DNA of 64,000 nt, taken from the NCBI GenBank assembly GCA_016206785.1, contig JACQQV010000039.1, forward strand, positions 5,978 through 69,977. The letters are read 5' to 3'. Both the position numbers and the translations under genes were made by a program. This document shows, piece after piece, positions 2,325-47,805 of this stretch (its first letter is position 1; each line of letters starts with the position of its first letter). Below the pieces are notes generated by a model. It did no database searches. It saw nothing but the letters and a program-made list of their open reading frames with translations, and was not told the origin of the DNA. Source of the DNA: Candidatus Omnitrophota bacterium. GTDB lineage: Bacteria > Omnitrophota > Gorgyraeia > JACQQV01.

Positions 2325-2798
2325 GTGAAAAAAGAGGCAATCATTCACAACCTCTTGACAATGGATAGGTTATATGATATGCTTAGGGATGTCAAGTTTG
2401 AAGAGGAGGGCGTTTCGTTGGAAGAGATGTCATTTCAAATCGATTTTTGCGAGAGACTACTCGAAAAAAACCCAACTTTCGTGGAGGCGATGATCGTTTT
2501 GGGAGAGCTCTACTCTCGGAAAGGACTTCACGAAAAGGGACTTGGAATCGATCTCCGCCTGGTCCAACTACGGCCAGAAGATCCCATCTGCCATTATAAT
2601 TTGGCCTGCAGTTACTCACTTCTTAAGCGGAATACGGAAGCGCTCGCGGCACTTGAGAAATCCATTGTTCTGGGGTATGATGACTTCCAATTTCTCCAGA
2701 AGGATGATGACCTCTATGCGCTACGACAAGATGCCCGCTATCAGGAACTTCTCAACAAATATCAGAAGAAACGGACCTCTCAGAAAGATTCCTTGTAG
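2325..2798 (+). CDS. TPR-repeat protein
   Basis: TPR-like helical repeats (..YNLACSYSLLKRNTEALAALEKSI..); GTG at 2325 or ATG at 2361, start uncertain. Confidence 0.5.
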   Translation: MKKEAIIHNLLTMDRLYDMLRDVKFEEEGVSLEEMSFQIDFCERLLEKNPTFVEAMIVLGELYSRKGLHEKGLGIDLRLVQLRPEDPICHYNLACSYSLLKRNTEALAALEKSIVLGYDDFQFLQKDDDLYALRQDARYQELLNKYQKKRTSQKDSL

Positions 2799-5960: not shown

Positions 5961-6040
5961 CCATTTCGGTAGCCCAGCTGCCCTTTACGGGTCTGTGGCT
6001 TTGCGCCCTACCCTTTCGGAGTAGTTAGCCTTTGTCGTGC
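5961..6040 (-). ncRNA. Candidate GEMM-I (c-di-GMP / cGAMP class) riboswitch aptamer
   Basis: Minus-strand RNA GCACGACAAAGGCUAACUACUCCGAAAGGGUAGGGCGCAAAGCCACAGACCCGUAAAGGGCAGCUGGGCUACCGAAAUGG: GNRA-capped hairpin, GGGCGCAAAGCC junction and GGGCUACCGA block resemble the Vc2 c-di-GMP-I aptamer as recalled. Confidence 0.6.
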
Positions 6041-6051
6041 GGAAAAGCACT

Positions 6052-6101
6052 CAATTGTCAAATACTAAAAAAAGTATACATGAAAAAGTTGCAATTGTCA
6101 A
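6052..6101. repeat. Two direct copies of CAATTGTCAA 40 bp apart, flanking an A7-centred palindrome ATACT-A7-AGTAT
   Basis: 6052-6061 and 6092-6101 are identical; each carries TTGACA on the minus strand; the palindrome 6062-6078 overlaps the -10 element. Confidence 0.6.
6073..6101 (-). promoter_or_regulatory. Sigma70-type promoter TTGACA-17-TATACT driving the riboswitch leader
   Basis: -35 TTGACA (6101..6096), 17-nt spacer, -10 TATACT (6078..6073) on the minus strand; predicted TSS near 6065. Confidence 0.55.
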
Positions 6102-20894: not shown

Positions 20895-21653
20895 CTATTG
20901 AAGCGCGGGCATTTTAAAAGAAGGGTCTCTCTTCTTTATTTGTTGTGCAATTTCAAAAAGCTTTTCTTGGAGAAGGGCATCGCCTGTTTTAAGATAAGCC
21001 GAATAGGTATCCAAGAAAAGATCCTGTATTTCTCTGAGACGAAGGACCCCTTCAAAGCTGTCAAGATCTTTCAAAAAACGGGTAAAATTCTCCTCTTGTG
21101 TTTTAAGGAAATTGAGGTAAGCCTCCCGGACGTTTAAAAGGATCTGCTGGTACTGATTAAAGAAGTGAGAAAGCTTGCTTAAGATGATCCCTAGGGCGGT
21201 GACTTTTCGGTGGAGAAGTCTATCGTACTCAGAGGCGAACTGGTAATACGTTTTCGCATAGCCTTCATAGGCACTCTGCGATTTCTCGAAAAAGGCGCTT
21301 TCCCCTCTTCCCTCCCCCCCGAGATTTTTAAAAATGCTGAGGAGGAGAAGGAGATGATCCGCATTCGTCTTGTAGACGAGATACTTGAAGTAGTTGTCTT
21401 GAGAATCCTCAACCATTTTGAAAACATCGGTGTTCCGAAGGGAAGCTAAATGTCGGATTCTTTCATTGAAGGAAGGATAGCTTGCTTCGAGGAGAAGGAA
21501 GGCAAGATAAATATTAACGTCCTCATCGGAGTGATGAGGATCTTCTTTCATCCCCAATTCAATGCGGGATTTTAGGACACTCTCCACAAGAAATCCCAAC
21601 ACAGATTCCTTTTTTTCATCGCTGAGATTAAAATAAAAGGGCTGGAGTTCCAT
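20895..21653 (-). CDS. Hypothetical all-alpha protein
   Basis: 252-aa ORF with GAAGGAGGG SD; no recognisable domain. Confidence 0.4.
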   Translation of the reverse strand: MELQPFYFNLSDEKKESVLGFLVESVLKSRIELGMKEDPHHSDEDVNIYLAFLLLEASYPSFNERIRHLASLRNTDVFKMVEDSQDNYFKYLVYKTNADHLLLLLSIFKNLGGEGRGESAFFEKSQSAYEGYAKTYYQFASEYDRLLHRKVTALGIILSKLSHFFNQYQQILLNVREAYLNFLKTQEENFTRFLKDLDSFEGVLRLREIQDLFLDTYSAYLKTGDALLQEKLFEIAQQIKKRDPSFKMPALQ

Positions 21654-21670
21654 TCACCCTCCTTCAGGCA

Positions 21671-21704
21671 CAAAAAAATCGGGATGGCCACTTGGCATCC
21701 CGAT
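21671..21704 (-). terminator. Intrinsic terminator (GC-rich hairpin plus U7)
   Basis: ATCGGGATGGCC..GGCCATCCCGAT stem of about 11 bp, then UUUUUUU on the minus strand; 88 nt past small ORF 21792..21899 and 18 nt before ATG 21653. Confidence 0.55.
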
Positions 21705-21719
21705 CGACTACCCAGATAC

Positions 21720-21748
21720 AATTATACCTGAAAAGGGTTGTTTTGTCA
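21720..21748 (-). promoter_or_regulatory. Perfect-consensus sigma70 promoter TTGACA-17-TATAAT
   Basis: -35 TTGACA (21748..21743), 17-nt spacer, -10 TATAAT (21725..21720); predicted TSS about 8 nt before the terminator hairpin. Confidence 0.55.
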
Positions 21749-21791
21749 ATGCTTCAAAGACAGAAAGGTCCGAACGACTTCCGAAGGGAGC

Positions 21792-21899
21792 TTAGACGCC
21801 GAGAAAGGCTCTCACCACGGTGGTCAGAACGAGTCCGATGACCATTCCGATGAGAAGGTTAAGGGTACTGGCAATATCAAAAATGGGGAATCGGTCCAC
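21792..21899 (-). CDS. Small hydrophobic peptide (35 aa), unannotated
   Basis: GTG start with AAGGAG at 8 nt; translation VDRFPIFDIASTLNLLIGMVIGLVLTTVVRAFLGV (one TM helix); own promoter and downstream terminator. Confidence 0.4.
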   Translation of the reverse strand: MDRFPIFDIASTLNLLIGMVIGLVLTTVVRAFLGV

Positions 21900-21920
21900 A
21901 GGTTTTTCTCCTTGTGAACC

Positions 21921-21949
21921 ATTATGGGATAGCGACGAGAGAAAGTCAA
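21921..21949 (-). promoter_or_regulatory. Sigma70-like promoter TTGACT-17-CATAAT for the 35-aa peptide
   Basis: -35 TTGACT (21949..21944), 17-nt spacer, -10 CATAAT (21926..21921); directly follows terminator 21951..21981. Confidence 0.4.
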
Positions 21950-21950
21950 G

Positions 21951-21981
21951 AAAAAAAAGGCCGCCCTTCATCAGGGCGGCC
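21951..21981 (-). terminator. Intrinsic terminator after the 49-aa membrane-protein gene
   Basis: Perfect 8-bp stem GGCCGCCC/GGGCGGCC, 7-nt loop, followed by U8 on the minus strand. Confidence 0.7.
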
Positions 21982-22010
21982 TCGTATGCTTCTTGGAGAG
22001 CCTAGTGGAT

Positions 22011-22160
22011 TTACTTGGCCAATTTCGCAAAGACCACTAGGATCGTTAGGATCGCGACCAGCGGCATATGGGCTGCAAGGTATCCACTATAATGTAGCCC
22101 CAAAAAGACGCCGATGACGATCCCTGGGAGAAGATCTTTGATTTTATCAAAAACTTTCAT
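22011..22160 (-). CDS. Small membrane protein (49 aa), unannotated
   Basis: ATG with AAGGGGGTGA SD; translation MKVFDKIKDLLPGIVIGVFLGLHYSGYLAAHMPLVAILTILVVFAKLAK (two hydrophobic segments); own promoter and terminator. Confidence 0.5.
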   Translation of the reverse strand: MKVFDKIKDLLPGIVIGVFLGLHYSGYLAAHMPLVAILTILVVFAKLAK

Positions 22161-22245
22161 TGTTTTCACCCCCTTAAGAAGGCAGCATCACTGGTGGATC
22201 AGCCCACCCCTTAAGAGCTTTAGCCTTTTGAGCCTTCTGTGGATA

Positions 22246-22274
22246 AGTATACCATACTAACAATAAAAAGTCAA
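22246..22274 (-). promoter_or_regulatory. Sigma70-type promoter TTGACT-17-TATACT for the 49-aa membrane protein
   Basis: -35 TTGACT (22274..22269), 17-nt spacer, -10 TATACT (22251..22246); sits in an AT-rich region with TGTACAAA(T/A)TTG direct repeats just upstream. Confidence 0.45.
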
Positions 22275-22388
22275 TATTTTATGACGTATCTTAATGTGAT
22301 ATAATTAGTTATAAGAATTTTAAGAGTGAAAATTTGACTCAATTGACGTTCAATTTTGTACATTTAAAAGAAAACAAATTTGTACACT

Positions 22389-22613
22389 CTATTTCCTCTT
22401 ATCCATCCTTCTGAGCTCCCAAACCTCCCTATCGATGAGGTGGGCCACTCTGTCAATCTCTCGAATCGCCTTTTCGAGGATCTTCCGGAAGTGGCTTGCC
22501 CCCCGGTGCCTTTCCTCGATTTCTACCAGCCTCGCGGCGATTTCGATAAGGGTCAGATACATCCCCTTCATCTCCATCGCTTCCCGAAGATTCCTGCTTT
22601 TCTTTTTTTTCAT
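22389..22613 (-). CDS. Hypothetical small coiled protein
   Basis: 74-aa ORF immediately after the HIT gene (1-nt gap); no recognisable domain. Confidence 0.35.
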   Translation of the reverse strand: MKKKKSRNLREAMEMKGMYLTLIEIAARLVEIEERHRGASHFRKILEKAIREIDRVAHLIDREVWELRRMDKRK

Positions 22614-34398: not shown

Positions 34399-34473
34399 TG
34401 GAGCGGGTGATGGGACTCGAACCCACGATATTCAGCTTGGGAAGCTGACGTTCTACCACTGAACTACACCCGC
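34399..34473 (-). tRNA. tRNA-Gly (anticodon CCC)
   Basis: Minus-strand cloverleaf GCGGGTG/CACCCGC acceptor, anticodon loop TTCCCAA, T-loop TTCGAGT, discriminator U, encoded CCA. Confidence 0.85.
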
Positions 34474-47241: not shown

Positions 47242-47805
47242 TCAATAGGATTTTCCCTGGCGCTTTTGGAAAGCTGCGATCTTAATTCTTTTCCACCCTT
47301 CATAAGGAAATTGAAATTCTCGGAGAAGAAGCGGTTTTTTACTATCGGAGAGTTCGATCAAAAGATCGCCGGTATGGCAAAAGCGGTGCCAAGGGTATTG
47401 TCGCACTTCGAGTTTTCCGATCGCCCCAAGGTCCACTTCTTGAGACCTTCTTCCCCTTTTTTTGAGGGTTAACGTTTCGGAAGTGAGGAACGCGGTGGCG
47501 GATGAGGAAAAGAAGAGAATTGAAAAAAGACCCCAACAAAAGAACGCACCCCAGTACGTGAGCCGGATCATTCCGGCACCGAGGAAGACTAAGGGAGAAT
47601 AGCGAACCAACAGGCCCCTTGCCCCGGTCTTGCCACTCCAAAGAAGAGTTTCAGGGCTGTTTGTCATTCTCAGCATCTGATTTCTCCATCCGAAAAGGGT
47701 AACTTCTCGAGAAATCGACCTTTCCATCGAAATCGGTGTCTGCTCGATAGGTGGTAATGGTTCCCCCTTCGCCGTATTGCGCCCAGGCATCCACCTTCCC
47801 ATCAA
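47242..47805 (-). CDS. Hypothetical membrane protein (possibly bacterial PH-domain type)
   Basis: Two hydrophobic helices then a soluble C-terminal domain; start unclear; overlaps neighbours. Confidence 0.3.
   Translation of the reverse strand: MMGRWMPGRNTAKGEPLPPIEQTPISMERSISREVTLFGWRNQMLRMTNSPETLLWSGKTGARGLLVRYSPLVFLGAGMIRLTYWGAFFCWGLFSILFFSSSATAFLTSETLTLKKRGRRSQEVDLGAIGKLEVRQYPWHRFCHTGDLLIELSDSKKPLLLREFQFPYEGWKRIKIAAFQKRQGKSY

Follow-up and report, generated by a model that had tools for sequence, protein, structure and literature searches.

A conserved array of predicted sigma70-type transcription units with two small membrane-protein genes and a candidate leader attenuator in Omnitrophota

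A stretch of about 600 bp in an uncultured Omnitrophota genome, with all of its features on the minus strand, is probably a tandem series of three conserved sigma70-type transcription units that hold two small membrane-protein genes, here called pep1 (49 amino acids, aa) and pep2 (35 aa), and a leader terminator, T2, placed before the gene of a 252-aa protein; we consider this the best explanation of the data. Omnitrophota are uncultured, mostly ultra-small bacteria whose gene control is almost undescribed. The stretch was analysed within a 64-kb piece of DNA, referred to as the window, for which a sequence-only reading had proposed three tandem sigma70-like promoters, two terminators and two small hydrophobic open reading frames (ORFs), and all of these were recovered to within 1-2 nt. 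The three promoters, two terminators and two ORFs recur in place across 10 distinct related loci, and as every one of them shows the same layout, position by position, the whole arrangement is not due to chance.

Related loci came from several sources, namely a scan of genome contigs (L001, an Omnitrophica metagenome-assembled genome, MAG), a pep1 profile search with contig look-ups (L002-L005), a metagenome scan (L006-L009) and look-ups of remoter homologues of the 252-aa protein at ~62% identity (L010 and L011). Together these are 11 loci, of which 10 are distinct, as L007 and L008 do not differ in sequence over the parts that were read; L001-L007 and L009-L011 were read in detail. Apart from a few remote homologues of 45-48 aa, pep1 and pep2 are restricted to a narrow Omnitrophota clade, in which they are vertically inherited.

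Three promoters recur at the same relative positions

A sigma70-type promoter was defined as a TTGACA-like -35 hexamer and a TATAAT-like -10 hexamer 16-18 nt apart, a definition that P1, P2 and P3 satisfy. In the pattern scan, P1 (TTGACT-17-TATACT, 22246..22274) matches the consensus at 10/12 positions, carries the extended -10 element TGgTATACT and would drive pep1, and P2 (TTGACT-17-CATAAT, 21921..21949), likewise with 10/12 matches, would drive pep2. P3 is a perfect TTGACA-17-TATAAT promoter (12/12) placed 42 nt past the pep2 stop codon; the sequence-only reading had the site right and its coordinates 1 nt off, at 21748..21720 instead of 21749..21721. P1-P3 score 10-12/12 at the same relative positions in the related loci, with spacers of mostly 17 nt (18 nt at promoter P2 in two loci). 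Promoter P2 is kept in 11/11 loci with 10-12/12 matches and P3 in 11/11 with 11-12/12, while the P1 block TTGACTTTTT-N8-TATGGTATACTT is almost invariant in the loci whose contig covers it; P1 is the only element missing from L004, where it falls beyond the contig end. In L011, the -35 hexamer of P3 shares bases with the stop codon of pep2.

Promoter-like sites with at least 10/12 matches number 20 in the window versus ~5 in Markov-simulated sequence, which suggests that this genome uses highly consensus-like sigma70 promoters. Three of the 20 sites, within 554 nt on the same strand, are P1, P2 and P3. Another perfect TTGACA-17-TATAAT site is present at 47245 (minus).

Two further features lie upstream of P1, between it and a HIT gene. 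A palindrome-like motif at 22386..22374 and 22363..22348 (minus; TGTACAAATTTGT and ATGTACAAAATTGAAC, core ACAAATTTGT) sits between the HIT stop codon and P1 and is kept in the related loci that cover this stretch. It resembles the operator of a dimeric DNA-binding protein and could take part in the control of P1. The second feature is a helical ORF of 74 aa (HY590_05985, 22389..22613, minus), which has no family match in the profile libraries; among the closest relatives, a gene was called at this position only in L005 (60 aa), and none was called in L002, L003 and L010.

Both small ORFs evolve as protein genes

The coding sequence (CDS) of pep1 extends over 22011..22160, from ATG 22160 to the stop codon at 22011, and follows a Shine-Dalgarno (SD) sequence AAGGGGGTGA at 22175..22166. 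That of pep2 covers 21792..21899, from GTG 21899 to the stop codon at 21792, with the SD AAGGAG at 21913..21908. The sequence-only reading regarded both genes as unannotated, which is true only of an ORF track with a 60-aa limit: both are in GenBank, pep1 as the hypothetical protein MBI4436937.1 (HY590_05980; exact look-up) and pep2 as MBI4436936.1 (HY590_05975), there with a 59-aa model.

In codon alignments of nine loci, variable columns at codon positions 1/2/3 number 32/14/45 for pep1 and 25/14/33 for pep2. The median proportion of differences is ~0.66 at synonymous sites (pS) and ~0.23-0.25 at nonsynonymous sites (pN) for the two genes, giving median dN/dS values of ~0.17 for pep1 and ~0.19 for pep2, at a divergence that has nearly saturated the synonymous sites. 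Indels never break either frame and comprise at most two codons inside the conserved core, and in every locus an SD is found 5-9 nt upstream of both starts. As the variation falls mostly on codon position 3, with low dN/dS and with frames kept, both ORFs evolve as proteins, and we regard pep1 and pep2 as real protein genes under purifying selection. Lack of conserved peptide frames in relatives had been named beforehand as the outcome that would speak against the proposal, and the frames proved to be conserved.

The GenBank model of pep2 (a hypothetical protein, 21792..21971) begins at ATG 21971, which lies inside the loop of the upstream terminator T1 and upstream of promoter P2. Its 24-codon extension contains in-frame stop codons in 5/11 loci. 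The start of the 35-aa frame, by comparison, is kept everywhere together with its SD, as ATG in L001, L003, L004, L010 and L011 and as GTG in the others. The 35-aa frame is therefore the conserved gene, and the GenBank model is probably too long at its N-terminus, with GTG 21899 as the likely true start. Gene callers usually find pep1, and of the four loci whose calls covered pep2, three lack a call for it.

Judged by composition and motifs, pep1 is predicted to be a small membrane protein. A charged N-terminus is followed by an LPG(I)xxGxxxG glycine zipper, an aromatic/polar stretch, a conserved (H/Y)(M/L)P and a second hydrophobic segment, such that the protein carries a GxxxGxxxG motif and two hydrophobic segments at a mean Kyte-Doolittle hydropathy of 1.25. 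pep2, with a mean hydropathy of 1.50, reads as a single-pass membrane peptide with a GxxxG motif, in which (R)FP(I)FD is followed by DLLIGxxIG and a hydrophobic tail. Profile searches among 5.8 billion proteins returned six clusters for pep1 and seven for pep2, and a HMMER pass over 1.84 billion representative proteins gave 13 relatives of pep1 at E ≤ 1e-3. The remote pep1 relatives of 45-48 aa retain the glycine zipper and (H/Y)(L/M)P, and two of these stand in unrelated contexts that lack pep2 and the 252-aa gene; the pep1-like genes at L012 1..270 and L013 250..620 (45-46 aa) are of this kind.

No match to either peptide was obtained in Pfam, NCBIfam, PHROGs or PADLOC, where the best E-values of 0.03-0.14 fell short of the cut-offs. 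Described small membrane-protein families likewise gave no significant profile match in these collections and PDB, and a PDB sequence search with the pep1 profile returned nothing. Paralogues of pep1 or pep2 are absent from the window, in which each gene is single-copy.

T1 and T2 differ in sequence constraint

Both terminators consist, in all loci, of a GC-rich hairpin directly followed by a U-run, which was our definition of an intrinsic terminator. T1 (21950..21983), the terminator of pep1, has an 11-bp GC-rich stem and a 5-nt loop (stem-loop 21983..21957) followed by U8, and folds at -23.8 kcal/mol (z = -5.3 versus shuffles). Its hairpin and U-run are at the same place in every locus with the sequence turning over, as mean pairwise identity in the T1 region is 0.35 and only 3/106 columns are invariant.

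T2 is part of a leader of ~45 nt downstream of P3 (21670..21713). This leader comprises a GGGUAG box at or near the predicted transcription start (21713..21708), the T2 hairpin (21705..21677) with the 5' arm CGGGAUGCC and the 3' arm GGCCAUCCCG, and, after the hairpin, U7 at 21676..21670. The T2 hairpin has a folding energy of -18.3 kcal/mol (z = -2.6 versus shuffles) and one bulged base in its 3' arm; it was not among the sites given by the terminator pattern scan. Mean pairwise identity is 0.61 across the P3 leader and 0.16 in the spacer upstream of it, and 19/61 leader columns are invariant, among them GGGAUG in the 5' arm and AUCCC in the 3' arm. In the eight closest loci the full GGGAUGCC arm and the upstream GGGUAG box are also kept, and the box begins at the predicted transcription start in five of the eight. 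A search for the leader motif gave a single occurrence in the window and likewise one in each locus that the pattern matched. L009 has ~200 extra nt between pep2 and P3, and a GC-rich, hairpin-capable insertion of ~55 nt between the GGGTAG box and T2 (~2560..2650); the conserved boxes on both sides are retained.

Inspection by eye of the 10 aligned loci, for which no terminator scan was run, showed no other terminator-like element between the pep2 stop codon and P3, and T2 is thus the first terminator that pep2 transcripts would meet. The earlier proposal of dedicated terminators accordingly holds for pep1, which has T1, and fails for pep2, since T2 lies past P3, with the ribosome-binding site of the 252-aa gene immediately behind it. 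The SD and start of that gene follow 10-25 nt after T2 in 9/10 aligned loci and after 120 nt in L011; the 11 loci show no additional promoter-like site between T2 and the 252-aa ORF, from which it follows that the 252-aa gene and the genes behind it would be transcribed only through read-through of T2. In all 11 loci the elements are arranged as in an attenuator, a promoter being followed by a terminator and then by the SD and a CDS that lacks any other promoter.

Based on these features, T2 is probably a leader attenuator for the 252-aa gene as well as the terminator of pep2. The two boxes, GGGUAG and GGGAUG, hint at a binding site, and the invariant T2 stem suggests recognition by a trans-acting factor, since its sequence constraint exceeds that of T1 in the same loci. 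Known binding motifs, namely UAG/GAG repeat arrays, the RAT element and the ANTAR double hexaloop, are absent from the P3 leader. Reiterative transcription at a GGG start, as at pyrG, was also considered and is unlikely, as the distance from the -10 hexamer varies in 3/8 loci and the 5' terminator arm is not pyrimidine-rich.

The pep1 leader is constrained as nucleic acid

A 5' leader of ~80 nt (22161..22240) precedes pep1. Between the -10 hexamer of P1 and the pep1 start, nine loci have a column identity of 82%, as against a difference of ~66% at synonymous sites of the neighbouring pep1 CDS and spacers that cannot be aligned, and the leader is therefore taken to be constrained as nucleic acid. 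The RNAalifold consensus contains a small 5' hairpin P0 (22234..22222), an invariant apical hairpin P2 with GGUGG/CCACC (22208..22193) and a helix B, in which 22217..22209 pairs with 22179..22171. In helix B, an anti-SD-like tract CUCUUAAGG pairs with UCUUAAGGG, which is the 5' half of the SD region, and this SD-occluding leader may limit or modulate the translation of pep1. In L010 and L011 the position of leader hairpin P2 is occupied by a GGUU/AACC hairpin with a 6-nt loop.

Over 10 loci, 90.4% of the cells of this structure are paired and three pairs show compensatory change; values as high as these are reached by 8-21 of 500 shuffles, and pairing in slid controls is 41-65%. As such, covariation support is suggestive and modest. 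Rfam 15 gave no match at gathering thresholds in the studied region (region and whole window scanned), with only sub-threshold, terminator-driven matches (Phe_leader 20.9 bits versus 55, suhB 19.6 versus 41).

A further helix drawn by eye, helix A, in which 5' AGAAGGC pairs with GCCUUCU just upstream of the SD, was rejected, as it shows no compensatory change and does not rise above shuffles on the MAFFT alignment; it seemed to recur in the remote homologue L012 and is kept merely as a possible alternative conformer. The pep1-like gene of L012 likewise has a leader, of ~85 nt, in which pairing is possible between a purine tract on the 5' side (AGAGGAGG) and the pyrimidines that directly precede the SD (CCUUCCUCU).

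The 252-aa gene and its surroundings

The gene behind T2 (20895..21653, minus, start 21653) has its SD directly after the terminator, and its product is identical to 'MAG: hypothetical protein HY590_05970 [Candidatus Omnitrophica bacterium]'. The protein is 60-85% identical across related loci. Its family forms 22 clusters among the 5.8 billion proteins, all unnamed or hypothetical, and appears to be an Omnitrophota-specific orphan family. The protein is all-alpha in its AlphaFold2 model, with a predicted local distance difference test score (pLDDT) of 62.6. There was no Foldseek match of this model to PDB at E ≤ 0.001, no hit in a PDB profile search and no domain match in Pfam, NCBIfam, PHROGs or PADLOC. 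Given the poor model and the absence of structural and profile matches in these searches, the protein gives no functional clue for the peptides or T2.

The related loci share the gene order of a divergent ExeA-like AAA_22 ATPase, HIT, pep1, pep2 and the 252-aa gene. Next comes a VanZ-like gene in all loci with a long enough contig, L011 excepted, and then a methylmalonyl-CoA-mutase-like gene in four of the long loci, and not in L003; in the window, both genes come after the 252-aa one. Elsewhere in the window, a c-di-GMP-I riboswitch (5965..6040, minus; 56.6 bits versus a threshold of 35) has a promoter-like site with 11/12 matches, TTGACA-17-TATACT, ahead of it at 6101 (minus), and a tRNA-Gly(CCC) at 34399..34473 (minus) is the sole tRNA.

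Discussion

In the model that we favour, P1 would transcribe a conserved leader of ~80 nt, pep1 and T1 as a first unit; P2 would transcribe pep2 from GTG 21899 as a second unit that has no terminator of its own ahead of T2; and P3 would transcribe, as a third unit, the ~45-nt leader with the GGGUAG box and T2, leading to the ribosome-binding site of the 252-aa gene. Translation of pep1 may be restrained by the leader stem that pairs the anti-SD-like tract with the SD. T2 would have a dual role, ending pep2 transcripts and acting as leader attenuator for the 252-aa operon, such that this operon would be expressed only by leaky or factor-dependent read-through of T2 from P2 and P3. The two peptides might act as small integral membrane subunits or modulators and may pack against each other, or against a neighbour such as the VanZ-like protein, through their glycine-zipper faces. 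A regulatory role for the membrane peptides, as put forward in the sequence-only reading, is possible.

Several observations weigh against parts of this model. The transcription starts of P1-P3, termination efficiency and translation are all predicted from sequence, and the function of the peptides is deduced from composition and motifs only. In the AlphaFold2 model of pep1, residues 2-48 form one long helix (pLDDT 86), a result that carries no information on membrane topology, and a common origin of pep1 and pep2 was rejected, with an hhalign probability of 31% over 16 columns in which only DLLxGxxIG is shared. Neither an antiterminator helix nor a binding factor was found for T2, nor any conserved alternative helix. 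The covariation of the pep1 leader is within the range that unconstrained related sequences can sometimes attain, and the leader of the window folds no better than shuffles (z = -0.11); across loci, single-sequence folding gives z values of -0.1 to -3.7 and minimum free energy structures that differ from one another.

The alternative that survives best, which we hold to be possible and somewhat unlikely, is that T2 is a plain, constitutively leaky terminator of pep2, P3 an ordinary promoter of the 252-aa operon that happens to stand ahead of this terminator, and the pep1 leader an element for mRNA stability or ribosome loading that does not switch. The lack of any alternative antiterminator pairing or ligand-binding-like structure is in line with this, as are the unremarkable folding energy and modest covariation of the pep1 leader. 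Such an account, however, does not explain the near-invariant T2 arms, the bulge position and the GGGUAG box, given that T1 and the spacers diverged freely in the same loci, and to set a 12/12 promoter right in front of a U7-tailed hairpin of -18 kcal/mol would seem wasteful unless read-through is modulated.

At the other end of the scale, the P3 leader, the pep1 leader or both might be an undescribed cis-regulatory RNA of Omnitrophota, a proposal that we put forward only tentatively. A factor-dependent attenuator made up of the GGGUAG box, the CGGGAUGCC...GGNCAUCCCG hairpin and the U-run would then gate the 252-aa/VanZ-like/mutase-like operon, a translational switch would gate pep1, and the glycine-zipper peptides would form a dedicated membrane module.

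It is more doubtful that P3 and T2 form a free-standing gene for a trans-acting small RNA of ~45 nt, with the 252-aa gene expressed incidentally by read-through. A perfect consensus promoter followed immediately by a strong terminator would fit such a gene, and so would the conservation of the T2 stem and 5' box beyond the needs of a terminator, with invariant columns far more frequent than at T1, and the 120 nt that separate T2 from the next start codon in L011. The 252-aa SD is, however, so close to T2 in 9/10 loci, and without another promoter, that the gene depends on read-through. In addition, no target was found for such an RNA, as it lacks complementarity to the neighbouring mRNAs, its motif occurs once in the window and it has no Rfam family.

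That pep1, pep2 or both are type I toxins, silenced by an SD-sequestering fold and an antitoxin small RNA, perhaps the P3-T2 transcript, is very improbable. The sequence-only reading had raised toxin-like peptides, and what speaks for them is that both peptides are hydrophobic and shorter than 60 aa, that the pep1 leader can occlude its own SD, as is the case in the tisB, zorO and hok mRNAs, and that the neighbouring sequence encodes a ~45-nt RNA complete with a perfect promoter and a terminator. The antisense-RNA search that the same reading had called for, however, revealed no conserved antisense sigma70-like promoter across the region in 11 loci. The P3 RNA shows no complementarity to the pep1 and pep2 mRNAs either, with duplex energies equal to those of shuffled RNA and predicted sites that differ between loci. 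Both genes are strictly syntenic in every related locus, single-copy in the window and under purifying selection (dN/dS ~0.18), and neither PADLOC nor PHROGs recognises the peptides. This conservation pattern reads as that of vertically inherited core genes and not of patchy toxin loci.

Finally, the notion that the small ORFs are not genes, and that open frames accompany conserved RNA or DNA elements incidentally, might draw on their very short length and on the frequent failure of gene callers to find pep2, and is effectively refuted by the codon-substitution test (substitutions in the order of codon positions 3 > 1 > 2, dN/dS ~0.18, frame-keeping indels), by start codons and SDs conserved in 11/11 loci and by motifs retained in the remote 45-48-aa homologues from unrelated contexts.

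Among known systems, the peptides most resemble AcrZ, MgrB, MgtS, KdpF and CydX, small bacterial membrane proteins with their own promoter and terminator that form the field of Hemm, Storz and colleagues. Proteins of the AcrZ type usually act by binding a larger membrane protein. The likeness lies in a length of 30-50 aa, one or two hydrophobic helices, short transcription units that are independent or leader-proximal, and strong SDs, and also in the fact that such proteins, like pep1 and pep2, are often missed or mis-started by annotation. Unlike AcrZ and its counterparts, pep1 and pep2 have no sequence relation to a described family and are confined to the narrow clade and few remote relatives described above. 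With tisB/istR-1, zorO/orzO and hok/sok, the locus shares a hydrophobic peptide, a long SD-occluding 5' untranslated region and a short RNA gene nearby, but it differs from these in that no antisense or complementary RNA was found and in that the genes are single-copy syntenic core genes.

The P3 leader is comparable to attenuators under the control of RNA-binding proteins or NTP-sensitive initiation, such as those of B. subtilis trp/TRAP, hut/HutP, bgl/LicT and pyrG (reiterative transcription), in which a strong promoter, a short leader, an intrinsic terminator and the SD of the gene follow one another, and it also shares with them a conserved terminator 5' arm with a related G-rich box upstream (here GGGAUG and GGGUAG, respectively). 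In contrast to those attenuators, it has no known binding motif and no antiterminator helix that can be drawn, and it is only ~45 nt long. The pep1 leader, in turn, is similar to RNA thermometers and riboswitch expression platforms in that an anti-SD tract rich in pyrimidines (CUCUU or CUCCU) lies on one side of a conserved apical hairpin and pairs with the purine-rich SD on the other; unlike them, it has no recognisable aptamer or Rfam family, unremarkable stability and three compensatory pairs in 10 sequences.

Taken at the strength of the sequence comparisons, the locus would add two new small membrane-protein families and two candidate cis-regulatory RNA elements. Our search of the literature on small proteins of Omnitrophota found nothing relevant. 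Standard pipelines mishandle both peptide families, pep2 being often uncalled and, in GenBank, started inside a terminator. If the leader elements prove not to be regulatory, the value of the locus would lie mainly in the correction of annotation and in a well-documented case of small-protein genes, in a layout that is mostly ordinary. In either case, the locus is an unusually clean, comparatively validated case of consensus sigma70 promoters, intrinsic terminators and a leader terminator in Omnitrophota, and if its leader elements are indeed regulatory, they would be, to our knowledge, the first cis-regulatory RNAs for this clade.

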